Assembly: GCA_035324355.1 (NCBI GenBank)
Contig: DAOLBU010000001.1
Coordinates: forward strand, 18,124-63,884
Reading direction: 5' to 3'
Origin: Minisyncoccota bacterium
Lineage (GTDB): Bacteria > Patescibacteriota > Minisyncoccia > Phycocordibacterales > UBA918
DNA length: 45,761 nucleotides
Below are positions 7,182 through 37,686 of the stretch, piece by piece (within the stretch, counting starts at the first letter, position 1; the number at the start of each line of letters is the position of its first letter). The notes beneath the pieces are model-generated. The model was given only the letters and a program-made list of their open reading frames with translations, was not told the DNA's origin and ran no database searches. The translations under genes were made by a program, and so were the position numbers.

Positions 7182-8918
7182 ATGCTTAATTTTAATGACA
7201 AATTTGCCAACAACCAACTTGGCGAGTTAAGGCGAAGTGAGGAAGAAAAATTAGTCCAAGCTTTAGCTCCACAGTATGGTTTTGAATACATCAACTTAAA
7301 TGGTTACACCATTAACCCAGAAGCAATTAGTCTGTATCCCGAAAAAAAGGCCCGCGCAGCAAAATTGGTAATCTTTGATGTTAAACACGACCTCCTCTCG
7401 GTTGCTACCCAAACACCCAACAATCCCGTCACTCTCCAAGCCCTGCAAGAGCTACAAAACAATCGGCAAAACATCCAAATTTTTATGTGTTCGCAGGCCA
7501 GTTTAGAGCATGCCTGGAAACGTTATGTTGATATTGTAAAATCCACTGGCGAGAAAAACGGAGTTTTTGATATCAGTGAAAATGAAATTTTAAACTTTAC
7601 CAAATCAATTAAAGAGCCTGGTGATGTGTCTAAACTTTTTAGTAAAATCAACACCCTCAACAACTCTAAGCGAGTCACTGAAAGTTTGGAATTAATTTTA
7701 GCTGGCGCCCTTGGTTTAAAAGCTTCCGATATCCATATTGAGCCAGAAAAGACAGTGGTGCGCTTGCGCTATCGTCTCGATGGTGTGTTGCAAGATATTT
7801 TTGATATAGATCGCTATATTTATGATCGCTTAATCTCTCGCTTAAAACTCATTTCCGGAATGACTCTCAATCAAAAGAAAGAATCTCAAGACGGCCGGTT
7901 TACTTTTACCTTAGGCGAACAAGAAATTGACGTGCGTTCATCTATTATTCCCGGCGCATCCGGAGAATCTATGGTAATGCGTCTTTTGGATTCTGGAGTA
8001 GCCAGTTACACTCTAGATAAAATCGAAATGAACCAGAGACTACGTACCACAATGGAAAAGGAACTGAAGAAACCTAACGGATTGATTTTAACTACAGGTC
8101 CAACTGGTTCAGGTAAAACTACCGTGCTATATGCTTTTCTGCGGGCGGCTCACAAAGAAGGAGTAAAAATTATTACCATCGAAAACCCGGTGGAATATAA
8201 AATTGAAGGCATTGTCCAAACGCAAGTCAGCGATAATTATACCTTCGCTTCCGGTCTGCGAGCCATCCTCCGCCAAGACCCGGATATCATTCTTATTGGT
8301 GAAATTCGTGATCAAGAAGTGGCCGAAACCGCCCTTCATGCAGCCCAGACTGGACACTTAGTGTTTTCGACCCTGCACGCCAATAATGCGGCGGCGGCTT
8401 TTTCACGTCTAATTGATCTTGGGGTAGATTCTCGCGTCTTGGGTACTTCAGTAAATGCCGTCCTCGGTCAAAGATTGGTACGTCGACTTTGTGAAAAATG
8501 TAAGGTGGCTTACACCGCTTCAAGTGAAGAGTTGGCTTTAGTTAAAGAAGTACTAAAAAGCCACCCTGATGCGGTGACAGTTAATGAGCCCCTGACTTTA
8601 TATAAAGGAGTTGGCTGTAGTTATTGTGGTGATACCGGCTATAAAGGTCGTGTTGGAATTTTTGAAGCTATTTTGATGGACGAAACAGTGGAAGAAACTG
8701 TCATTAACGATCCGCGTGAACATGTTTTATTTGCTGCCGCTAAAGCTCAAGGAATTCCAACCATGCTCGAAGATGGAATGGAAAAAGTGGCTAGTGGCGT
8801 TACTTCTATTGTCGAGCTTGAACGCATGATTGAAATCCCTCGACTCAAACCAAAAGTACCAGATGAACCAAACGATACTGATGATACTGACGCCTTCCTT
8901 TCACATATAGTTTCTTAA
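7182..8918 (+). CDS. pilB: GspE/PilB-family secretion ATPase (type IV pilus assembly ATPase-like)
   Basis: 578 aa. It has an N-terminal GspE-N-like domain, Walker A TTGPTGSGKTT, an Asp box/Walker B region (ILIGEIRD) and a tetracysteine motif (CEKC...CSYC). Confidence 0.9.
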   Translation: MLNFNDKFANNQLGELRRSEEEKLVQALAPQYGFEYINLNGYTINPEAISLYPEKKARAAKLVIFDVKHDLLSVATQTPNNPVTLQALQELQNNRQNIQIFMCSQASLEHAWKRYVDIVKSTGEKNGVFDISENEILNFTKSIKEPGDVSKLFSKINTLNNSKRVTESLELILAGALGLKASDIHIEPEKTVVRLRYRLDGVLQDIFDIDRYIYDRLISRLKLISGMTLNQKKESQDGRFTFTLGEQEIDVRSSIIPGASGESMVMRLLDSGVASYTLDKIEMNQRLRTTMEKELKKPNGLILTTGPTGSGKTTVLYAFLRAAHKEGVKIITIENPVEYKIEGIVQTQVSDNYTFASGLRAILRQDPDIILIGEIRDQEVAETALHAAQTGHLVFSTLHANNAAAAFSRLIDLGVDSRVLGTSVNAVLGQRLVRRLCEKCKVAYTASSEELALVKEVLKSHPDAVTVNEPLTLYKGVGCSYCGDTGYKGRVGIFEAILMDETVEETVINDPREHVLFAAAKAQGIPTMLEDGMEKVASGVTSIVELERMIEIPRLKPKVPDEPNDTDDTDAFLSHIVS

Positions 8919-11400: not shown

Positions 11401-11904
11401 ATGAAAGTATTAGCCATTGATCCCGGTTATGACCGGCTCGGAATAGCGGTCGTCGAAAACTCTCCTCAGTGTGAAGTGGTGCATTTTTCTACTTGTTTAA
11501 CAACCGACAAAAATTTAAGTTTAGCGCAGCGTATTTTAATAATTGGTGATGAGATTGAGAAGCTGATTTTGTCTTACGCTCCAGACAGCGTAGCTATCGA
11601 AACACTTTTCTTTAATAAAAACGTCAAGACCGCTATTGGAGTGGCTCAGGCGCGGGGAGTAATTCTTTATCTCGCCCAAAAGCATAATTGTGAAATTTAT
11701 GAACTAGGACCCCAACAAATTAAAGTGGCGATTACTGGGTATGGTAAAAGTGACAAAAGTGCTGTCAACGTCATGTTGCAAAAATTATGCCGTAATATTC
11801 CCCCGAAAGCTCTAGATGATGAATACGACGCTATTGCCGTGGGGGTTACCTGCTTAGCTTATTATGGTAAAAAAAGTCAAAGTCCCCATATTCGGGGTAA
11901 GTGA
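11401..11904 (+). CDS. ruvC: Holliday junction resolvase RuvC
   Basis: 167 aa with MKVLAIDPGYDRLGIAVVE and a C-terminal DDEYDAIAVGV acidic catalytic region. It ends at TGA. Confidence 0.9.
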   Translation: MKVLAIDPGYDRLGIAVVENSPQCEVVHFSTCLTTDKNLSLAQRILIIGDEIEKLILSYAPDSVAIETLFFNKNVKTAIGVAQARGVILYLAQKHNCEIYELGPQQIKVAITGYGKSDKSAVNVMLQKLCRNIPPKALDDEYDAIAVGVTCLAYYGKKSQSPHIRGK

Positions 11905-20547: not shown

Positions 20548-21753
20548 TTATTGACAAGAGGTTCCGTTCCAAGTTGAGTTACCAGCACATGTGACTTGGA
20601 TGGTTACATAAGAGAGTAAGGCGCCAGTCAAACTGTCATTATTACGTAGGTTAAATCGATTTCTTGCAGGATTAATTCCGCTTGCTTGTATTGAACCACT
20701 AGCACCCGGTCCTGAAACCCTAAAGCCATTATGTTCAACTAAAGGTGAAGTAGCGTCAGTAGTGTCCCAGGTAATGGTGATGTTGGAAGGACATTCGTTA
20801 CCACCTACAGGGATAGTACAAGAATTGCTACTAGCTACCATAGTGCCAGAGGCACCACCGTCGCCAATCTCCGCAACACAGGTATTAGTATCACGTTTCC
20901 AACTAGACCCATCTGCACAGGAAATATTAGCTGGAGTAGAGGCGACTTCAGTATCGCCGTCATGAACTGAAAGACGAACAGTGGAACGACTTCCTGTAAG
21001 TCTGAGCTTATGATTGGTGCCGGCAGCAGCTGTCGAAAACTCAATATTGTCGTATCTGATACTTGGTGCAGTATTATTTTGAGTGCTCCAAGTGACTGAA
21101 ACATCGCAACCCCCTTCACCGACCGGGATTTCACAACCAGTGGCTGTGATTGATCTGGGTGTTTGGACCCCAGCTCCACTTTCAAGAGCTAAATTAATGT
21201 TTGTGAGATTCGGGTTTATTAGAGTTAAGATTACTACTGCCGAAATAACTATCAGTAAACCAGTCAAGGCTCCCTGAATATCTTTTTTTGCCTCTTCTTT
21301 GCCAGTTACGATGTCAGTCATCATCCACTTTACACCAGCGACAATAATTTTAATGACAGCAAGTAGGGCCGCTAGACTTATGGAAAGTATATAAAGAGCG
21401 TTAATATATGTACCTAAATCTGAGTCATCTTCAACACCTGGGATACCTACTAGTGGGACAAATGGTCCCGCGGGGGTTGGGGGAGATGTTGGTGGTGAAG
21501 GGGGCTCAGCACGACAGTCGATACTCGTAATGTTACCGACCGCATCCCTTATCGGCACCGGAAATCTATCTTCACGCTCACAACTTTCCATTATTAAACT
21601 ACAATAAGTTGGATGATAATCAGGCACCTGACATTCACCTGAAGAGGGGTATTGTGCTAGCGAAATTGTAGGACTTAGGACTAAAAAAAGCACCACTAAG
21701 AATAAAGAAAATGAATGCCTGACGGCGTATAATTTTTTAATAATTATTTTCAT
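20548..21753 (-). CDS. T4SS pilin (VirB2/TrbC-type core) fused to an N-terminal Cys-rich/Pro-rich region and two C-terminal Cys-rich repeat domains
   Basis: Signal peptide MKIIIKKLYAVRHSFSLFLVVLFLVLSPTISLAQ, with start taken at 21753 (the track ORF extends to 21810). The pilin core is YINALYILSISLAALLAVIKIIVAGVKWMMTDIVTGKEEAKKDIQGALTGLLIVISAVVILTLINPNL: two hydrophobic helices with a charged loop. The C-terminal repeats are C-x-IPVG-x3-C...TW...C-x10/11-C. Confidence 0.65.
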   Translation of the reverse strand: MKIIIKKLYAVRHSFSLFLVVLFLVLSPTISLAQYPSSGECQVPDYHPTYCSLIMESCEREDRFPVPIRDAVGNITSIDCRAEPPSPPTSPPTPAGPFVPLVGIPGVEDDSDLGTYINALYILSISLAALLAVIKIIVAGVKWMMTDIVTGKEEAKKDIQGALTGLLIVISAVVILTLINPNLTNINLALESGAGVQTPRSITATGCEIPVGEGGCDVSVTWSTQNNTAPSIRYDNIEFSTAAAGTNHKLRLTGSRSTVRLSVHDGDTEVASTPANISCADGSSWKRDTNTCVAEIGDGGASGTMVASSNSCTIPVGGNECPSNITITWDTTDATSPLVEHNGFRVSGPGASGSIQASGINPARNRFNLRNNDSLTGALLSYVTIQVTCAGNSTWNGTSCQ

Positions 21754-22912
21754 ACATCCAAAGAGAGTTATCATTTTTGTTGGTAAAAAAGAATGCTTTA
21801 AAATTAGCATCGTAACTTAATCTCATCACATCAATTTCGCGTCCACTAGCTGACAAGATATCAACAAAAATATTACTTGTGCCGGTAACTAAATCTATTA
21901 AAAGTAGTCGGTCAGCAAAACTTAATTTACCTTGATACCAAATGTCAGGCATTTGGTATGGAAGGGTAATATTTGGATCGTAGGGACACATGATATTGAG
22001 GGCGTTTTCTATCAGCAGACATTTTTCAGGGAGGTAAGTTTGATTGAGAGCTTTTATCTCATTAGTTTTTTGATTGTAAAAATAACTCATTGGGGCTTGA
22101 TCAGTAAGTTTGGTAAAGAGGATAGTTTCCTCTTCGACTAAAGCAGAAAAGCCAAAACCTTCTAGAGGAAGTCTTGTCAGCTTACTTCCTTCAATTTTGT
22201 AAAGAAAACCCTCAAGTGCATAGCTGGCTTTAGGATAAGCATAGTGTGGACCAGCAATACTCTCGCCCCATTGTATTCTGGCCTCACTAAAAGGTAGCGT
22301 AAAAACTGTCTTTTTATTTAAGGTATCTAACTCATAGGCATAAGCTACTAGGTTACCCCCTTCCATCGAGGTAAAGAATAAGTAGTTATTTTTAAGATAA
22401 AAATCTAGAACTGTATCAGTAATTACTTCAATCAAGGTAGAATTTTCTCGGTCTAAACGAAGGAGGGATAAGTTTTTAATTTTAGTATTATTATAATTAA
22501 CAATGGCTACAGTATTACCGTCATCGGATATATAGGCCTCACGAGCTTGGATAATGGTAGTGCCTGAGAGTCGTCTCTCCTCCCCACTATTGCTATTAAT
22601 ACTATAAAGATGCCCGGTGCCCATTTCCACAAAGTAAATTTCAAGATTGCCGTTATCATCAATCACCTCATTAAAACCAGCTACCGGTCTAGTAGTTAGT
22701 TGTCTAAGGGGTGGCCGCTCCAGGTTGACTGGAAAGTCCTCTTCATTTGGGAGGTTTAGTAGCGGAGCGTTATCTACTGCTCCTCCATTAACTAAATTAT
22801 TAAACATATCAACGTTATCTTCCGCCTTCGCAAAGAACAGCAGATAACCCCACACTACTGCCAAGATAACAATGATGATAATGCCAAAAATAATGAGGAG
22901 AGGTTTTTTCAT
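21737..22912 (-). CDS. N-terminally membrane-anchored protein, possibly beta-propeller-like; T4SS-locus component of unknown family
   Basis: 391 aa with a TM helix LLIIFGIIIIVILAVVWGYLLFF. The rest is beta-rich with repeated hydrophobic/polar blade-like segments. It overlaps the pilin gene start. Confidence 0.5.
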   Translation of the reverse strand: MKKPLLIIFGIIIIVILAVVWGYLLFFAKAEDNVDMFNNLVNGGAVDNAPLLNLPNEEDFPVNLERPPLRQLTTRPVAGFNEVIDDNGNLEIYFVEMGTGHLYSINSNSGEERRLSGTTIIQAREAYISDDGNTVAIVNYNNTKIKNLSLLRLDRENSTLIEVITDTVLDFYLKNNYLFFTSMEGGNLVAYAYELDTLNKKTVFTLPFSEARIQWGESIAGPHYAYPKASYALEGFLYKIEGSKLTRLPLEGFGFSALVEEETILFTKLTDQAPMSYFYNQKTNEIKALNQTYLPEKCLLIENALNIMCPYDPNITLPYQMPDIWYQGKLSFADRLLLIDLVTGTSNIFVDILSASGREIDVMRLSYDANFKAFFFTNKNDNSLWMYENNY

Positions 22913-22915
22913 AAT

Positions 22916-23884
22916 TTAAAAATTTACTTGTACTTGACGCTGAGCTCCCTGGAGGAGTTGCTTTAAATTTCGAATATGAAAATTAATTTGGGAAGTACCT
23001 CTTCCTTCTCTATCTGGTCTAGCAAGAGTAATTTCGTAAGGATTATTTATTGGTACAGGACTTTTTTTATTATCAACGGTCCATTCTAGTAGCGGGGGTT
23101 GGTTGTAGGTTTCTAGAGCCAAGTAATAAGGTTCGGCCGTTAAGGTAGCGCTATTACCAGTTAAATACAATGAATCAAGAGCTTTTGGATTAAGACCATA
23201 AAGGGCGGTTTTTTCATAAAAATAGACCTCAGGCTCTACTGAAGGCAGGCGTAAAGTTTTTTTAATTAATTCTTCGCCGTTTAATTTGGTAACCCGCAAA
23301 GATACAATGAACGAATTTCCTCGCGGCACAGTAATAGTGACATTACTGCGGCCACGCAGGGGGCCGCCACCAATCACTTGGCCGTTAACTTGCCAAGTAT
23401 AAATTAAGTCATTACTAGAGATAGAAGTACCACTTATTATAGCTTTGAGATTAACCTGACTTTCAATACTAGGTAATCCTCGTCCAAGATAAAATGCTGG
23501 GGTTCTAGTTTGAGGCTCTACGACTATATCAAGATAAGTGGGTGTGACAGTTTTCCTTAAAACGATACTTTGGTTTCCATTTAGTCCGATATTGGCTTCG
23601 ATGGTAATTGTCTTGCCCACTTCACCACTTTGAAGATTAATTGTTCGAAGATTATTATTGTCAGCAACAGTTAAACCATTGATCTTCCAAGAAATAGAAG
23701 TGGTTTGACCAGATAAGGAATAATCATCTAAGCTGGCACTAAAAGTGCTGTGGGGAGCAGGATAGGTTGGCTCAATTACAATTGCAGCGGTTTGACTAAA
23801 CCCGCTCTCACTTATTTGAGCTTGAACGAAAAGTGGGCCTGCAAAGAGAAAGCAAAAAGCTAATACGATATATTTGGCCATCAT
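22916..23884 (-). CDS. Secreted protein with Ig/PKD-like repeats; T4SS-locus component of unknown family
   Basis: 322 aa. The signal peptide is AKYIVLAFCFLFAGPLFVQAQ. Repeated SWKINGLTV... and YTWQVNGQVI... modules are present. Confidence 0.5.
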   Translation of the reverse strand: MMAKYIVLAFCFLFAGPLFVQAQISESGFSQTAAIVIEPTYPAPHSTFSASLDDYSLSGQTTSISWKINGLTVADNNNLRTINLQSGEVGKTITIEANIGLNGNQSIVLRKTVTPTYLDIVVEPQTRTPAFYLGRGLPSIESQVNLKAIISGTSISSNDLIYTWQVNGQVIGGGPLRGRSNVTITVPRGNSFIVSLRVTKLNGEELIKKTLRLPSVEPEVYFYEKTALYGLNPKALDSLYLTGNSATLTAEPYYLALETYNQPPLLEWTVDNKKSPVPINNPYEITLARPDREGRGTSQINFHIRNLKQLLQGAQRQVQVNF

Positions 23885-23928
23885 TAGTATAATAACAAAT
23901 TATCAAAGCCTATTTTTCGATGAGTACT

Positions 23929-24768
23929 TTATTCTGGGTACAGCCAAACCACCAACATCACTAACAATATCCAAGGAACAAGACTTAGTATTGGTGTGCT
24001 GTAGCCTAACAAAGCTATACCAAAAGCAGCATATTTAAGTATTTCCTTGCTGCCAGATAATGGTTTTAGGTTAGCAGAGCGGTAGGCGAGGTAAATCATC
24101 AGCAGCATGAATAATCCTAATACATGCATCATTGTTCCGGTAATAGCAAATAGCGGGTAAATAACATCTTTAACGTTGTACCACCAAGCAGCGACGCTGC
24201 CTGTGACACCCACCCCACTAACTAGTAGAGCATAAATACCCGCACTCACTAAAAAGATGATTGCTAGTGGTAACTGAACAAAATTCCCAAAGATACCTCC
24301 AACAAGAGTAATAGTACTATTTATCGCTGTAACCCTCGCCCTAGCTAAACTTTTTTTTGCTATAGAAGCTGTGGTGGTACTTTGGAGTCTTTGTGGTGCT
24401 AGGCGGTTATTTAGAACACTTCGCCTACGTCTATTTCTGAAACGGCCAGGTGATTCGGCTATCTTTGAGTTTATACGAGAAAAGCGCGACCGACCTTCCC
24501 GTACAGTAGAAGTTGGTTCGATCTCTGGATTATTGGCAGCAGTAGGTTCATTTAAATTTTGTGGTTGTAAGCCTTGGTTTTGATATGAGGCACTAAAAAT
24601 TTGGTCGGTAGGGGCATTTATCGGTAGTTGTTGTTTTTGTAGGTAGCTCCAATCTTGATTGGTGCGTTGATTTCGAGTGACTCTGACGTTACCTACTCTC
24701 TGGCGTTGCCGAGATGAGTTTTGTCGAAGATTTCCCTCTTGATTTAACTGAGTTTGACTAAGAGCCAT
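23929..24768 (-). CDS. Membrane protein with a Q/N/R-rich disordered N-terminal half and a ~4-TM C-terminal half; T4SS-locus component
   Basis: 279 aa. The first ~150 aa are low-complexity and basic, followed by hydrophobic helices (LPLAIIFLVSAGIYALLV, MHVLGLFMLLMIYLAY, SLVPWILLVMLVVWLY). Confidence 0.5.
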   Translation of the reverse strand: MALSQTQLNQEGNLRQNSSRQRQRVGNVRVTRNQRTNQDWSYLQKQQLPINAPTDQIFSASYQNQGLQPQNLNEPTAANNPEIEPTSTVREGRSRFSRINSKIAESPGRFRNRRRRSVLNNRLAPQRLQSTTTASIAKKSLARARVTAINSTITLVGGIFGNFVQLPLAIIFLVSAGIYALLVSGVGVTGSVAAWWYNVKDVIYPLFAITGTMMHVLGLFMLLMIYLAYRSANLKPLSGSKEILKYAAFGIALLGYSTPILSLVPWILLVMLVVWLYPE

Positions 24769-24783
24769 AACCTACTCAGTATA

Positions 24784-26583
24784 CTATACCCTTGATGCTT
24801 GGAGTTCGGCCCGAGCTTTTTTGATTTGAAGTAATTGTGATGGGTCAGAAGTAATGATTTGATCTTCGGTATAAGACGCAATTACTTTTACGGCCACATG
24901 TTTTAAGCCAGCAAAAAAGATTCCCTCCCCTACTCCTGACTCTAGCAGAAGGAATTTTTCTTCATCGGTTAAGTTGAAGGTCCGTTGAATGTTATCTATT
25001 GCTGTTGGGGATTGTTTCATCAAAAACTGCAATGAAGAGTTGGTGATCATCGGGACTCCATAAGGGGAGCGCAAAAAGTCGTCCACATCTTGAGTAATGG
25101 TGGCAATCCCTAAGTAATATTTTCTCCCCCTTTTAGCCAGACTAAACAAAAATGAAGCGGTATCCTCTGACTTCATCATCCACCAAGCTTCGTCTATCAC
25201 TAATAAACGCTTTACAATCCGACGTCTTATCGAGCCCCAGATAAAGTTGGTAATGATATACATAGCGATAGTCTTTAGCTCTTCTTCCATATCTCGCATC
25301 GAGAAAACTACAAATTTCTGGTTGATGTCGACGTTTGTTGGTCGATTCATAAAACCTGACCAGGTACCGGAAGTGTATTTTTGTAGACGGGAAATAAGAG
25401 ATGAACTGCCATCCATCCCTGCCAAGACCATCTCGAAGTCGGATAGTAGTGGCGGTTCTTGATTACTAAAGTCCGAATCCCCAGTGATATCTTTTAAGGC
25501 ATAAGTTTCCTGAATAGCTAAGTCCAAAACTGTCTCCTCTTCAGGGGAAAGGCCGCCGAGCATAAGTCTAAATAGGCCAATGAGCTCAATGATGTGGGTG
25601 CGCAAAATATCTCGCGGGCTCTCATCAGCTTGTGGTGCTGGTAGGTCAAACGGATTGATATGATGATCTGATGAAAGAGAGATGTTAAAAAATCTTCCAC
25701 CAGTGGCTTCGGCTAAGTATTCATATTCCCGCTCTGGGTCAAGGACAATCACTTCAGTCCCAAACATTAGTGAGCGCAGAATTTCGAGCTTAAGGGCATA
25801 AGACTTACCGGCGCCAGAGGTAGCGAAAGTAACCGAGTTATAGTTGGTCAAAGAAAAACGATCAAGTAAAACCAAGGAAGAATTGTGTCGATTGATACCA
25901 TAGAGAATTCCATTGTCAGAAGTTAGGTCAAAAGAGGTGAAAGGAAAGAAACTCGACAGCGGAGAAGAATTAAACTTATTGTGGACCATAAGTTGGTCGG
26001 TAGCCAGTGGTAGGACACTTTGAATCCCCTGCTCTTGTTGGAAGAGAGCAGGTTTAAGATAAACTAATCTAGAATCTAAAATTCCTTTTATCTCAGATTC
26101 GGCTTTGTTTAAAACCGCTTCGGTTTCACCATAAATAGTGAGATAGAGTCCAACATCAAATAACTTCTCGGTCGATTGTTGAAGTTTGTCACGTAAGTCT
26201 TCGAGGTTATTAAAGGCCGCTTCTAGTTGCGGGTCTCGTACTTCACCTTTCTCGGCTTTGAGATTAATTTGACTCTGTACCTCGGCCACTTTCTTCTGGA
26301 ATTTTTTTAAAGTTAGTGCTGTATCTATTGGGTGTATTACTATCGAAATATCCAGTTCTTTTTCAAGATTAAGAATTGGTTCTAGCCACCCGTCGTTTAA
26401 AATCCGGGGGAAAGCCACAGCGTAAAGTACTCTGGCGTTCATGCCGCTAACGTTAATACTACGTGGACTAATACTAATAGCCGAAGGCGCAATCACATCG
26501 GTCATGGTTAGTAAGTGATCGGTAATGGATTCTTGTCCATTCTGGTCATTTACCTTAGGTTGTAGAAAATCAAAAAGTCCCAT
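24784..26583 (-). CDS. virB4: VirB4/TrbE/CagE-family type IV secretion ATPase
   Basis: 599 aa with Walker A TSGAGKSYALK, Walker B LLVIDEAWWMM, and TQDVDDFL plus downstream family motifs. Confidence 0.9.
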   Translation of the reverse strand: MGLFDFLQPKVNDQNGQESITDHLLTMTDVIAPSAISISPRSINVSGMNARVLYAVAFPRILNDGWLEPILNLEKELDISIVIHPIDTALTLKKFQKKVAEVQSQINLKAEKGEVRDPQLEAAFNNLEDLRDKLQQSTEKLFDVGLYLTIYGETEAVLNKAESEIKGILDSRLVYLKPALFQQEQGIQSVLPLATDQLMVHNKFNSSPLSSFFPFTSFDLTSDNGILYGINRHNSSLVLLDRFSLTNYNSVTFATSGAGKSYALKLEILRSLMFGTEVIVLDPEREYEYLAEATGGRFFNISLSSDHHINPFDLPAPQADESPRDILRTHIIELIGLFRLMLGGLSPEEETVLDLAIQETYALKDITGDSDFSNQEPPLLSDFEMVLAGMDGSSSLISRLQKYTSGTWSGFMNRPTNVDINQKFVVFSMRDMEEELKTIAMYIITNFIWGSIRRRIVKRLLVIDEAWWMMKSEDTASFLFSLAKRGRKYYLGIATITQDVDDFLRSPYGVPMITNSSLQFLMKQSPTAIDNIQRTFNLTDEEKFLLLESGVGEGIFFAGLKHVAVKVIASYTEDQIITSDPSQLLQIKKARAELQASRV

Positions 26584-26592
26584 AATTAATTA

Positions 26593-27225
26593 TTAGTTAT
26601 TCCCCACGGGCGCAGAACCGGTTGGATCGGTAGGATTATAAATATGGTAATACAGCTCCACTAAATCTTCATTGTTAAGCATAATTGTTCGTACCCCTAG
26701 TCGCGACAAACCTTGTTCAACAACTGACACTCTTTGTTCGAGTTGGATCTTATATTCATCAAACATTAATTCTTCCGGAGTGGATTTTTGCCCTGGGGTA
26801 AAAAATGAAGTCAGGCCTTTTGTAAAATTAATCGGTGCGGGTGTATAAGGGATAATGACAAAGAAACTCTTACTCATCACATCTACTTCAGTAGTAAAGG
26901 TTCGAATAAACTCAATATATTCCCGAAGTTGGATTCGCATCAAGTCATTGTCCTGGGAGTCTTTTCTGGTAGCCAGTAGCGCTAAGTATGGCTCGATGTT
27001 AAGTCGGCGTGATTGAACATAAATCTGAAGCGAAAAATCCAGAGTATTAAGAAAAGATTGAAAGTTATGGAGAATTGCTTGTTGTTCATCCAGTGATTTA
27101 AGGGCAAAGTTAATTGATGAAGCCAGTAGTACTGAACACATTTGTCCATTTTTCAGTAAAACCACACTATCTCTAATGTCTTTAATGGCAACAAAGTCTT
27201 GGGTAGCTGATGAGGTTCTAGGCAT
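26593..27225 (-). CDS. Hypothetical protein resembling the N-terminal domain of Gram-positive VirB4 homologues; T4SS-locus component
   Basis: 210 aa. TQDFVAIKDIRDSVVLLKNGQMCSVLLASSINFALKSLDEQQAILHNFQSFLNTLDFSLQIYVQS matches the pattern I associate with N-termini of PrgJ/TcpF-type ATPases. There are no NTPase motifs. A double stop (TAA TAA) precedes virB4. Confidence 0.4.
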   Translation of the reverse strand: MPRTSSATQDFVAIKDIRDSVVLLKNGQMCSVLLASSINFALKSLDEQQAILHNFQSFLNTLDFSLQIYVQSRRLNIEPYLALLATRKDSQDNDLMRIQLREYIEFIRTFTTEVDVMSKSFFVIIPYTPAPINFTKGLTSFFTPGQKSTPEELMFDEYKIQLEQRVSVVEQGLSRLGVRTIMLNNEDLVELYYHIYNPTDPTGSAPVGNN

Positions 27226-27234
27226 AGTGATATT

Positions 27235-27672
27235 TTAGAGATCTTTTTTTTGCAGAGCGGCTAATTCTAAGCGACGGGCGAGCGATGTGATGTTTTTGGA
27301 GTTGGGCGCTGCATGGGCTAATGGAGTGGATGTTTGTGGCAGCTGACTCGGCGTGAAATTGTACTTATGGACAGTCGGTGTCTTCTTTTTCCAGAGATAA
27401 AGTTTTTGTCGGCGAAAATAGCCAATAATTGCCTCAAGAAAAAATGAGAAAGGGCGGTTGTTCACTGGATAAAAAGATAAGGCACCAGCTAATACTCCAA
27501 GTGGCAAACCAATAAGCAGGAAGAGCCAAAATGGGGCAGTGAAAAAAAGAACCACTCCCATCCCCACTCCTCCGCCAAGGTAAAGAAACTGGCGCCAGGT
27601 AAAAGGACCAAAAATTTTATCTTCAATTTCTATAAATTGTGGTACCTCAAATTGCATACTTACATTATACAC
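27235..27672 (-). CDS. PrgI-family (VirB3-like) small membrane protein
   Basis: 145 aa. FEVPQFIEIEDKIFGPFTWRQFLYL is followed by two TM helices, the hallmark of the PrgI family found upstream of VirB4 in monoderm T4SS. Confidence 0.65.
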   Translation of the reverse strand: MYNVSMQFEVPQFIEIEDKIFGPFTWRQFLYLGGGVGMGVVLFFTAPFWLFLLIGLPLGVLAGALSFYPVNNRPFSFFLEAIIGYFRRQKLYLWKKKTPTVHKYNFTPSQLPQTSTPLAHAAPNSKNITSLARRLELAALQKKDL

Positions 27673-29381: not shown

Positions 29382-30476
29382 CTAAAGGGGTTTAGTGCCG
29401 GCTCTTTGAGTATAATTTCCCCCCTTGCCCGCCGCTTTTTGCCCCAAAGAGACCGCCTTGTCAGCACCGACTGCCCCTATTTTTTTTGCGACTATGAGAG
29501 AGGCGATCAAAAAACCACAAGCGACAATAAAAAACATTAAAGGTCCTTCAAAACCTCTAAAGGCTGCTGCAGAATTTGCGCCACTCACTGAGTTTGCTAA
29601 TGAACTGACGTCTTTCATTCCTGCACCTATCGCCTTCATGATTTCCATAGAAAAATAGATCATCAGGAAATAAGCTGGTGCAAAAAAAGCTTGACCGAGA
29701 AATCCGGTCATATATTGTTTTGAGATGCCGCTAAATCCCGGGAAGACCAAGCCAATGAACATTGCTGGCGACAACAGCATATATATATTAAGAGCAATAA
29801 ATCGTATTATCAGCAAAATAGCACCAGCTGCAAAAACAAAAGCAGCAACCAAGAATAGATACATAGTTCCAAAAATGTACCCCAAACTTAATGTATGGGC
29901 CGGTATACCTTCTGTATTAATAACTGACGTTATACCAAGACTTGTCATTACTTTTTGACTAATAACATATTTATTTAAATCTGTTTGGTCCTTATAATCT
30001 TGCACAAATTGTTTAGCTGCAATATTAGAAAAATCTATGACTGTCTTGGTGAAAAAAAGACTAAAGTTTACCAACAGCGCCGCCAAAATAAGCATACCCA
30101 AAGCTTTTTTGGCGTTATTATCAGAACTATTTAATATCATTTTAAACCCAATGTAAACCAAACCGAAAATAAAGGTGAGATTAAATATGTCTCTCATCTT
30201 AGTCCACAGTAGATCAATCGCGGCTCCAAGCCCACTTGTGGTGTAATACCCACCAAAACCCACCACAAAGTGTGTAAGTGTATAGTCCAGCGCCCAACCA
30301 CCTAACATCAATAGGCTTCCAAAGATGGCAACGACAAAGCTGTAAAGATATCCTAATAGCTTCGTGTCCCAAGTGGAGGCGAAAGTAACTTGCGGAATAA
30401 ACAGTATTAGAACCAAACCAAACACAGTAAAAAGCGTCGGTATCAGATGCTTTTTATTTGTGAAGAGCTTTTTCAT
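29382..30476 (-). CDS. Polytopic membrane protein, VirB6/TrbL-like by topology and context
   Basis: About 364 aa from ATG 30476 (MKKLFTNKK). It has a signal/TM1 plus roughly 7 further hydrophobic helices. It ends in a Gly-rich tail (GKGGNYTQRAGTKPL) and TAG. Confidence 0.5.
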   Translation of the reverse strand: MKKLFTNKKHLIPTLFTVFGLVLILFIPQVTFASTWDTKLLGYLYSFVVAIFGSLLMLGGWALDYTLTHFVVGFGGYYTTSGLGAAIDLLWTKMRDIFNLTFIFGLVYIGFKMILNSSDNNAKKALGMLILAALLVNFSLFFTKTVIDFSNIAAKQFVQDYKDQTDLNKYVISQKVMTSLGITSVINTEGIPAHTLSLGYIFGTMYLFLVAAFVFAAGAILLIIRFIALNIYMLLSPAMFIGLVFPGFSGISKQYMTGFLGQAFFAPAYFLMIYFSMEIMKAIGAGMKDVSSLANSVSGANSAAAFRGFEGPLMFFIVACGFLIASLIVAKKIGAVGADKAVSLGQKAAGKGGNYTQRAGTKPL

Positions 30477-33692: not shown

Positions 33693-33953
33693 TTAGTCTT
33701 TGTATATCTCATGTCCGCCAATTGCTAATAAAGCTACTTCAGAACTAGAAAGATAACAGTAGATAATACGTATCTGATAATTTACAGAAAAACTATATCT
33801 ATCCTTGAGCCGACCTTTCAGCTTATGGGCGCGAAGCTGATCTTGCTTTGGATTGAGTTTAAAATGTTCAATTTTTTCTAACGTTTCCCGCTTTAAGTCA
33901 GGTTCAAGTTTTTTGAACATGCGCTTAAATTGCGGTGTGATAGCAACATCCAT
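33693..33953 (-). CDS. RelE/ParE-superfamily type II toxin
   Basis: 86 aa. FKRMFKKL...LRAHKLKGRLKDRYSFSVNYQIRIIYCY...ALLAIGGHEIY is a typical RelE/StbE-like pattern. It lies 3 nt downstream of the antitoxin. Confidence 0.75.
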   Translation of the reverse strand: MDVAITPQFKRMFKKLEPDLKRETLEKIEHFKLNPKQDQLRAHKLKGRLKDRYSFSVNYQIRIIYCYLSSSEVALLAIGGHEIYKD

Positions 33954-33956
33954 AAA

Positions 33957-34181
33957 TTATTTACTGCCGTCAGTCATTAAGATAGAAGCTAAATCGCCAC
34001 GAAGAATTTTTCCTTCGGCGACTTCTTGTTCGGCACGTAAGACAGCATTGACTGCCTCTTCTTCGCGATAAAGCTCTATGGCTTTGCGAATTACTGCCAC
34101 TCGGTTGGCACCAGTAATTTCCACTAACTCATTTAGTTCTTGTTCAGCCTTCGGATTAAGCGGTACAGATATAGTAGACAT
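33957..34181 (-). CDS. Ribbon-helix-helix-type antitoxin
   Basis: 74 aa. The N-terminal beta-strand plus helices (STISVPLNPKAEQELNELVEITGANRVAVIRKAIELY) fit an RHH/CopG-like fold. It is paired with the RelE-like gene. Confidence 0.65.
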   Translation of the reverse strand: MSTISVPLNPKAEQELNELVEITGANRVAVIRKAIELYREEEAVNAVLRAEQEVAEGKILRGDLASILMTDGSK

Positions 34182-36888: not shown

Positions 36889-37686
36889 GTGATGGTAGAA
36901 GATGGCGCTTTGGTTTCTGTCGGCCCGGTTGGAGCTAATGTGATTGCTTCCGCTAAAGGTTCTACTGGTGAAATCCGCGTTTATACTGTCCGTGCTGGCG
37001 ACACTCTTTCACATATTGCTGAAATGTACGATGTCACCGCTAATACTATATTATGGGCTAATGACTTGCCGCGCGCTACTAGTATTAAAGAAGGGCAAAC
37101 TTTAATCATCTTACCGATTGCTGGCGTACGACACGTTGTCAAAAAAGGCGATACTGTAAAGGCTATCGCTAAAACTTATGATGGCGATGTTGACGAAATC
37201 CTCAGTTACAACCAATTAGCTGATAGTGATGCTCTGGTAGTAGGTTCTACGGTGGTAATTCCAGGCGGAGCGATTCATACTGCCCCGGTTACTAAACCAG
37301 GAGCTTCTCCAACTAAAGCTTCAGGCTCAAAAATTTCAGGTGCTGGTTGGTTATCTCACCCTGCTCCGGGCAACATCAAGACTCAAGGTCTTCATGGATA
37401 TAATGCCGTGGACTTTGCTGGCTCTATTGGAACGCCAGTTCGGGCAGCTGCTAGTGGAGAGGTTATTGTCTCTAAGAGTTCAGGTTGGAATGGTGGTTAT
37501 GGTCAATATATTGTAATTAAGCACAGTAACGGGGCTCAAACTCTTTACTCCCACTTAATTCGTAACGATGTCGGAGTTGGAGCCTATGTAAGTCAAGGAG
37601 AGGTAATTGGCGGAATCGGTAATACCGGTCGTTCAACCGGACCTCACCTACACTTTGAAGTACGTGGAGCCAGTAACCCATTCTAA
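36889..37686 (+). CDS. LysM-LysM-M23 peptidoglycan endopeptidase. The annotated start is probably not the true N-terminus.
   Basis: Two LysM modules are present (YTVRAGDTLSHIAEMY..., HVVKKGDTVKAIAKTY...). M23 motifs are HGYNAVDF and GNTGRSTGPHLHFEV. The same frame is open from 36580 and encodes a TM anchor, but without ATG, GTG or TTG. Confidence 0.85.
   Translation: MMVEDGALVSVGPVGANVIASAKGSTGEIRVYTVRAGDTLSHIAEMYDVTANTILWANDLPRATSIKEGQTLIILPIAGVRHVVKKGDTVKAIAKTYDGDVDEILSYNQLADSDALVVGSTVVIPGGAIHTAPVTKPGASPTKASGSKISGAGWLSHPAPGNIKTQGLHGYNAVDFAGSIGTPVRAAASGEVIVSKSSGWNGGYGQYIVIKHSNGAQTLYSHLIRNDVGVGAYVSQGEVIGGIGNTGRSTGPHLHFEVRGASNPF

Follow-up and report, generated by a model that had tools for sequence, protein, structure and literature searches.

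The window analysed here, a stretch of 45,761 nucleotides (nt) from the genome of a Minisyncoccota bacterium (GenBank assembly GCA_035324355.1, contig DAOLBU010000001.1, positions 18,124 to 63,884), carries a minus-strand, chromosomal operon for a type IV secretion system (T4SS) close to the origin of replication (oriC), and the last gene of this operon is the subject of the present report. With the odds evenly balanced, we regard the gene as encoding a VirB2-like subunit of the origin-proximal T4SS of a Paceibacteria-class Patescibacterium, a subunit that would display variable contact domains. The longest open reading frame (ORF) of the gene (20548..21810, minus strand) has 420 amino acids (aa), and the start at its residue M20 (nt 21753, MKIIIKK...), chosen in an earlier reading of this DNA (the original prediction), is also the one used by gene callers and homologues, giving a protein of 401 aa to which the residue numbers below refer unless the 420-aa ORF is named. 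The database record of this pilin (P0001) has 401 aa, the homologues P0004 and P0005 share its start, and both here and in relatives the start overlaps the upstream gene by 17 nt. The stop codon lies at 20548-20550, and scans for promoters and terminators around the gene gave nothing above shuffled expectation.

From its N-terminus, the 401-aa protein consists of a signal peptide, a small four-cysteine (4-Cys) module, a Pro-rich linker, a two-helix core of 86 aa and two immunoglobulin-like (Ig-like) 4-Cys domains (Table 1), which confirms the originally predicted layout of a pilin-like core with additions on both sides, coordinates included. The N-terminal segment contains Cys 41, 51, 58 and 80, the eight Cys of the C-terminal region are those of the two Ig-like domains, and the core has none. 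Comparisons were made with the 120 best homologues, 119 of them complete, and with a second set of 56 complete pilin ORFs from GTDB species representatives, all Patescibacteria; the way in which the search was designed favours this core family in both sets, and the taxon labels of metagenomic bins are unreliable. Residues P28 and A33 of the signal peptide are nearly invariant among the 120 homologues, and the -3/-1 rule would place cleavage after A33, leaving a mature protein of ~368 aa with three extra folded modules, larger than the ~70-130 aa of a small mature pilin. In the AlphaFold2 (AF2) model the predicted local distance difference test score (pLDDT) of the linker falls below 50 at aa 89-95, and comparable Pro-rich linkers flank the core on both sides in P0005. 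The core itself is made up of a PLVGIPG motif, helix 1 (113-148), a charged loop (KWMMTDIVTGKEEAKKDIQ) and helix 2 (152-179).

Table 1. Parts of the pilin gene and other genes of the T4SS operon, with positions in the window
Feature	Position	Strand	Basis
Predicted signal peptide, aa 1-33 (MKIIIKKLYAVRH, a hydrophobic stretch and SLA before Q)	21655..21753	-	n-region with 4 K/R, hydrophobic span aa 7-36
N-terminal small 4-Cys module, aa 34-83	21505..21654	-	AF2 and recurrent Cys spacing
Pro/Ser/Thr-rich linker PPSPPTSPPTPA, aa 84-95 (contains PPSPPTSPPTP)	21469..21504	-	read from sequence
VirB2-like pilin core, aa 96-181	21211..21468	-	PF18895, AF2 hairpin, conservation
Ig-like 4-Cys domain 1, aa 201-293 (Cys 207, 216, 279, 292)	20875..21153	-	domain profile, 117 bits
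Ig-like 4-Cys domain 2, aa 303-401 (Cys 312, 321, 389, 400)	20551..20847	-	domain profile, 111 bits
391-aa upstream gene, N-terminal transmembrane segment and beta-propeller-like ectodomain	21737..22912	-	weak DUF5050 and TolB-propeller matches
322-aa secreted protein	22916..23884	-	N-terminal signal-like sequence; syntenic in relatives
VirB4-like T4SS ATPase	24784..26583	-	PF19044 P-loop_TraG E=7e-25, AAA_10
TrsD/TraC-like protein, resembles the VirB4 N-terminal domain	26593..27225	-	NF041427 TrsD E=2e-6, NF045975 E=3.5e-10
PrgI/VirB3-like protein	27235..27672	-	PF12666 PrgI E=9e-11
VirB6/TrbL-like polytopic protein, split by an in-frame TAG at 29382-29384 into 366 + 376 aa	28236..30482	-	TAG read from sequence

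The core has the build of a T4SS pilin, in that a signal peptide is followed by two hydrophobic helices with a short charged loop between them, and it is encoded alongside homologues of VirB4, VirB3 and VirB6. When the 420-aa ORF is compared with the pilin family PF18895 (T4SS_pilin), the match (aa 132-198, E=1e-4) reaches 22.7 bits and stays under the gathering score of 26.6, but a comparison limited to the core gives 27.6 bits (E=3e-6; profile positions 4-71 of 71), which exceeds it, as foreseen when the core was first likened to T4SS pilins. All of the 30 non-redundant cores of the family match PF18895, and 10 of them also match PF04956 (TrbC/VirB2) weakly and below threshold (best E=6e-4); the pilin of the window has no PF04956 match, either as a whole protein or as the core. 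A further weak match was obtained to NF045849 (aa 113-179 against profile positions 9-76 of 80; 19.3 bits, cut-off 40), and AF2 folds the core as a helical hairpin (113-148/152-179). As a separate observation, the motif (F/Y)-x-P-L-V-G-I-P-G stands directly after the signal peptide in most family members (120 homologues; loci L007-L060), and where a member has an N-terminal insertion, PLVGIPG is kept behind the linker; the motif may act in subunit contact, in lipid contact or as a site of processing.

Three hydrophobic spans are present in the protein (aa 7-36, 113-149 and 157-186), and Lys and Arg residues are concentrated in the loop between the two core helices, with four there, none before helix 1 and one after helix 2. 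Together with a cleaved signal peptide, this charge pattern would give an orientation with the N-terminus outside, the loop inside and the C-terminus outside, that is, the topology of VirB2. Moreover, Cys is lacking from the core in 119 of 119 homologues, and the C-terminal extensions carry an even number of Cys in 112 of 115 homologues and in all 56 pilins of the species-representative genomes, which is the pattern expected for disulfide-bonded extracytoplasmic domains; in the two Ig-like domains the expected disulfides would be 207-216, 279-292, 312-321 and 389-400. Hydropathy, charge distribution and even Cys counts thus all place the two additions outside the cell, in agreement with the original prediction.

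The two C-terminal domains are 26% identical to each other (E=6e-8) and are both matched by a single domain profile. Each is a repeat of ~93 aa that reads C-x-I-x-x-G-x3-C ... W ... C-x10-12-C, and the four Cys and one Trp of each domain vary little or not at all among 39 tandem pairs taken from other proteins, which argues that the 4-Cys pattern is not due to chance. The tandem 4-Cys motif of the original prediction is therefore real, with corrected spacings: 3 and 5 residues, not 4, precede the (V/I)TW element, and 12 and 10 residues, not 10/11, separate the last Cys pair. A Foldseek search with the full-length AF2 model (pLDDT 66) gave no significant match, and the comparison became informative only after the C-terminal 201 aa had been re-predicted by AF2 with a 39-row alignment of the tandem repeat pairs, which yielded two beta-sandwiches with a mean pLDDT of 92. 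Against the PDB, this half matched tandem Ig-like modules with a probability of 0.96-0.99, the E values being only ~1e-3; the matches included CEACAM5, Dscam1, CD22, Fc receptors, titin, the grappling-hook protein GhpA and the S-layer protein EA1. The predicted Ig-like fold is thus an assignment to a fold class, which implies no specific family, function or ligand, and the adhesin-like character first proposed for the appended regions is a candidate role.

No Pfam model covers the Ig-like 4-Cys domain, and when the C-terminal 200 aa of the protein were used in a word-indexed search for homologues, P0002 alone was returned. The breadth of the domain is seen by exhaustive profile search, which found it in 960 representative clusters at E<=1e-3 (301 of them at E<=1e-10), often as 5-12 tandem copies and in proteins of up to 3,566 aa. 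A recent exchange with these giant repeat proteins was considered and is not supported, the identity to their repeats being 20-34%. The domain also occurs in P0158, P0142 and P0211, proteins that end in two tandem PF18895 cores, which indicates at least two architectures in which the domain and a T4SS pilin have been combined. The first of these, P0158 (723 aa), ends an array of four PF18895 pilin genes (135, 112, 208 and 723 aa; L061, 107-3808) and consists of a signal peptide, many Cys-rich modules, Ig-like 4-Cys domains and two C-terminal pilin cores, an architecture repeated in P0142 and P0211. On the N-terminal side of the core, AF2 gives the small 4-Cys module a helix (48-60) and a beta-hairpin (64-69/75-81) with a pLDDT of ~85. 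Its Cys spacing, C-x(5-11)-C-x(5-6)-C-x(about 20)-C, recurs in the N-terminal extensions of P0003 and P0005-8, and a profile built solely from N-terminal modules matches eight C-terminal extensions of other family members, which suggests, with moderate support, that one type of small module may be used on either side of the core.

Additions of this kind are not peculiar to the gene of the window. All 119 complete homologues, of 220-491 aa, combine the 86-aa core (65-83% identical) with a Cys-rich extension, in most cases one of 117-368 aa at the C-terminus, and the 56 species-representative pilins, with a median of 266 aa, carry a Cys-rich extension in 55 cases and are bare in one, the C-terminal extension reaching at least 100 aa in 48 of them. 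The contrast drawn in the original prediction with pilins that are "normally small" is therefore misleading within this family. What is unusual about the pilin of the window is its N-terminal insertion and its Ig-like module. Few members have extra sequence between the signal peptide and the core (11/119 and 1/56), the core is flanked on either side by Cys-bearing domains in ~6/119 and 1/56 (about 2-5%), and within the family the Ig-like module is limited to P0001-P0004, with none among the 56 species representatives. In addition, three species-representative loci (L038, L046 and L057) contain two tandem paralogous decorated pilin genes each (358+361, 263+281 and 237+268 aa).

The clearest indication of how the gene evolves comes from four loci of close relatives, which are 96-98% identical to the window in DnaA, 92-97% in VirB4 and 88-91% in YidC. 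All four keep the signal peptide and the core, the latter as an island of DNA identity (21495-21200), and their decorations are either unalignable or of different domain content. In L004, about four small Cys modules precede the core and an unrelated 6-Cys module follows it; L005 has two small modules on the N-terminal side and a C-terminal tail of 15 aa; L001 lacks any N-terminal decoration and continues into Ig-like repeats, six in frame, the fourth of which is broken by TAA; and L006 has a larger N-terminal extension together with the same two Ig-like domains. The stop of L001 (10001-12250, the locus of P0004) is an in-frame TAA at locus nt 11474, where the other repeats have a Glu codon, and beyond it the pilin frame continues to complete six repeats and ~745 aa; it may be a nonsense mutation, a sequencing error or the mark of a truncated variant. 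No second copy of the core or of the Ig-like domain that could serve as a silent donor cassette is present within the 45.8-kb window.

The contrast between core and decorations extends to a more distant Kaiserbacteria genome (DnaA 86% identical), to which the core is 73% identical, as compared to 82% for VirB4, 69% for YidC, 66% for the TrsD-like protein and 63% for PrgI. A core identity comparable to that of VirB4, and above those of YidC and PrgI, fits a part of the secretion machine better than a plain anchor. Moreover, the loop between the helices is nearly invariant across the family, and a constrained hairpin with replaceable termini is what a polymerising or machine-embedded subunit of the VirB2 type predicts. 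The differing decorations, in turn, are probably the part that touches the host cell.

The operon that the gene closes encodes, in order, two membrane-anchored proteins of 295 and 474 aa, the VirB6/TrbL-like protein, a 157-aa protein, the PrgI/VirB3-like, TrsD/TraC-like and VirB4-like proteins, a polytopic protein of 279 aa, the 322-aa and 391-aa proteins and the pilin. Past the pilin lie yidC, rnpA, dnaA and dnaN, and ksgA is found at the opposite end of the operon. Five other loci show an identical order (VirB6-like, PrgI, TrsD-like, VirB4, three envelope proteins and the pilin last, beside yidC-rnpA-dnaA). No relaxase or coupling protein was recognisable among the operon proteins, and the window contains only one ORF with a pilin core. 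The VirB4-like ATPase has the identity in close relatives given above, and orthologues of the TrsD/TraC-like protein carry PF26593 (TraC-like). Orthologues of the VirB6/TrbL-like protein are single ORFs of 748-834 aa with PF19590 (TrbL_3); its N-terminal half is 60-74% identical among them, and its C-terminal half is unalignable even with strains whose DnaA is 96-97% identical, which indicates that this half is also hypervariable. Reassignment of the stop codon was considered for the in-frame TAG of this gene and rejected, since TAG ends eight other ORFs of the window and the in-frame stop of L001 is TAA.

Between VirB4 and the pilin lie three envelope genes (279, 322 and 391 aa; 21737-24768, minus strand) that have no family assignment and are 44-76% identical in close relatives, as compared to 92-97% for VirB4. 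In L001, L002, L004 and L005 the 391-aa gene is found at the corresponding place, its identity in close relatives being 64-73%, and a family scan of the 322-aa protein gave only insignificant matches to Cadherin-like and PKD domains. Farther away, a ParE/RelE-like toxin of 86 aa (33693-34181, minus strand; PF15781, E=9e-7) lies directly downstream of a 74-aa gene with no family match, likely its antitoxin, the pair being placed between ksgA and a UvrD-like helicase. A PilB/GspE-type ATPase with an MshEN domain (7182-8918, plus strand; PF00437, E=9e-110), the motor of a type IV pilus or type II secretion system, represents a second surface-filament system near the T4SS. Finally, a protein with two LysM domains and a Peptidase_M23 domain is encoded at 36889-37686 (plus strand), also near the T4SS; in Paceibacteria, proteins of the LysM/M23 type have been included among the VirB1-like cell-wall hydrolases that are associated with VirB4 (PMC12102498).

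The mechanism that we propose would start with export of the protein by the Sec pathway and cleavage of its signal peptide, leaving the two-helix hairpin in the membrane with its short Lys-rich loop in the cytoplasm and both termini outside. The N-terminal 4-Cys module, set off by the Pro-rich spacer, and the two Ig-like domains would then fold and form disulfides outside the cell. The T4SS, through its VirB4 ATPase and its VirB3-like and VirB6-like proteins, would extract the hairpins and stack them into a tube or short pilus, in which the conserved loop would line the lumen and the outward termini would project the variable domains from the filament surface towards the surface of a host or target cell, which these domains would contact. 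The scheme would require that the subunits polymerise, that they keep their domains when mature and that these domains are adhesive. In the known conjugative pili (F, T and related ones) the lumen is lined by the loop and both termini lie on the outer side, so that the termini would be the only places that tolerate bulky domains, and it is because of their exposure, we propose, that the decorations would be swapped as cassettes among close strains while the core stays unchanged. The F pilus is about 87 Å in diameter, with five subunits per 12 Å of rise. On a rough estimate, this geometry would leave each subunit a surface of ~26 x 26 Å, about the cross-section of an Ig-like domain, which would make the load tight, not impossible.

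Several points weigh against such a decorated filament. About 280 ectodomain residues per 86-residue core are a heavy load for a helical polymer, and we know of no VirB2-type pilus that carries folded domains. The full-length AF2 model of the pilin is of low confidence, and an Ig-like fold class names no partner for its domains. Searches of PDB chains with the whole protein and with a 30-sequence core profile detected no pilin (matches to a designed protein and to transmembrane helices of AcrB/MexB were judged to be chance), and a tblastn search of the core against 72,556 plasmids gave no match, so the pilin assignment rests on hidden Markov models, architecture and gene context. The genome may have other, undecorated pilin genes outside the window, in which case this protein would be a minor subunit, and the extensions may be processed. 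Finally, a pilus from a monoderm or Patescibacteria T4SS has never been observed and has been called a possibility (PMC12857230).

Alternatively, the protein might not polymerise at all but remain in the membrane, the hairpin being an anchor or a docking element for VirB6 and the variable ectodomains acting at the cell surface as an adhesin or receptor associated with the T4SS, an explanation that we consider doubtful. Monoderm conjugative T4SSs are generally without pili and rely on surface adhesins (PMC12102498; PMC10633639), and the same idea would suit ectodomains that outweigh the core about 3:1, Pro-rich spacers that could reach through the cell wall from the membrane, and an Ig-like domain that is common in giant, presumably surface, repeat proteins. 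However, the conservation of the hairpin exceeds what an anchor needs, with 65-83% identity, a near-invariant loop and the PLVGIPG motif, the core matches pilin models over its full length, and in all relatives examined translation of the gene is coupled to that of the T4SS operon.

It appears improbable, on the other hand, that the protein is a pro-pilin, one or both extensions being cleaved pro-domains or chaperone domains for export or assembly and the mature pilin a naked hairpin. The classical pilins TrbC of RP4 and VirB2 of Agrobacterium are indeed processed at both ends and cyclised, TrbC of RP4 being trimmed at its C-terminus, and PLVGIPG, placed after the signal peptide in most members and after the linker here, could mark a common mature N-terminus. 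Yet folded tandem Ig-like domains and a rapid, cassette-like diversification are unexpected of a discarded pro-peptide, and no TraF-like maturation protease was recognisable among the operon proteins.

A similarly low probability is given to evasion rather than adhesion as the force behind the decorations, which would then form a replaceable shield against phages or host defences. Pilus-specific phages are well known for conjugative pili, and decoration is completely turned over between strains with 96-97% identical DnaA. Variation among the pilin paralogues of other T4SSs has also been read as antigenic variation (PMC12102498). No phage or defence evidence, however, was found in the window, and the Ig-like tandem folds that were matched are mostly cell-adhesion or receptor modules. 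In any case, evasion concerns the selective pressure and is compatible with the decorated-subunit mechanism proposed here.

An artefact of assembly or a frameshift that fused separate genes, which the in-frame stops nearby (TAA in the L001 pilin, TAG in the VirB6-like gene of the window) might bring to mind and which the original prediction had named as a possible refutation, is rejected as next to impossible. Three contigs have a record of the identical protein of 401 aa, and P0003, which is 56% identical, combines the same three parts in a single ORF. The C-terminal domains and the core-to-Ig junction are also found in P0002 and P0004, and in 55 of the 56 species-representative pilins one ORF includes the extensions.

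Beyond the proposed decorated subunit, a more specific possibility can be put forward tentatively, namely that the operon-terminal pilin is a determinant of host specificity in Paceibacteria, in which a fixed VirB2-type core with N- and C-terminal cassette sites would exchange disulfide-rich modules between near-identical strains and build a filament with binding domains on every subunit. Much of bacterial diversity belongs to the Patescibacteria, whose life is spent attached to other microbes, and a cultured, genetically tractable Saccharibacterium cannot grow as an epibiont without its T4SS and the pilins of this system (PMC10633639). The exposed, fast-changing part of the Paceibacteria T4SS identified here would offer candidate determinants of host recognition in the form of small Ig-like and 4-Cys modules that could be expressed recombinantly, and the type of decoration would be a marker that could be correlated with host identity in metagenomes. 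Moreover, PF18895 dominates the freshwater-specific structure clusters, for which no explanation was given (bioRxiv 10.1101/2025.04.23.650224), and variable decorations may explain why this family splits into many structural clusters in freshwater metagenomes. If the proposal is true, the termini of VirB2-type pilins tolerate hundreds of folded residues, which bears on models of pilus assembly and on the engineering of conjugative pili for display, and this would be the first conjugative-type pilus with its own folded binding domains on every subunit, one of them an Ig-like domain shared with giant surface proteins.

The T4SS of Patescibacteria, its location and its VirB2-like pilins are already published, and we came across no account in the literature of pilins with Cys-rich or Ig-like decorations, or of a cassette-like turnover. 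The published VirB2-like pilins of Patescibacteria (PF18895; Wang et al. 2023, PMC10633639; Quinonero-Coronel et al. 2025, PMC12102498) belong to the same core family, and the published systems are of the same chromosomal, monoderm MPF-FATA-like type, arranged in the same way near dnaA, dnaN, rnpA and ksgA (PMC12102498). Those pilins are described as small and as often forming arrays of 2-11 divergent paralogues (PMC12102498), whereas the pilin described here is encoded by a single operon-terminal gene, its core is flanked by ~280 residues of a folded and presumably disulfide-rich ectodomain, and its variation takes the form of swapped domains instead of paralogue arrays. Also close to it are P0158, P0142 and P0211, which join PF18895 cores to the same Ig-like 4-Cys domain and to further Cys-rich modules; they differ in having all ectodomains on the N-terminal side, followed by the two tandem cores, and they adjoin small naked pilins and may thus be minor subunits. 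The "Mbov_0395 family pilin-like conjugal transfer protein" of the Mycoplasma integrative and conjugative element (NF045849) is likewise a small hairpin of a monoderm T4SS, and its match spans the whole core; the score is far under the cut-off, so the pilin of the window is not a member, and the Mycoplasma protein is without ectodomains.

The classical pilins TrbC (RP4), VirB2 (Agrobacterium) and TraA (F), of the PF04956 family, likewise combine a signal peptide with two helices and a short charged loop, and have homologues of VirB3, VirB4 and VirB6 nearby. Mature conjugative pilins of this type have ~70-80 residues, and some are cyclised head to tail, which the large terminal domains found here would preclude unless removed. 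Finally, two other surface systems offer an analogy, with no homology implied. Flagellin combines a conserved polymerising core with hypervariable exposed domains, and PrgB, an adhesin of Gram-positive T4SSs, mediates mating contact through Ig-like adhesin domains; the variable domains of flagellin are inserted in the middle of the protein, whereas those of the pilin described here are terminal.

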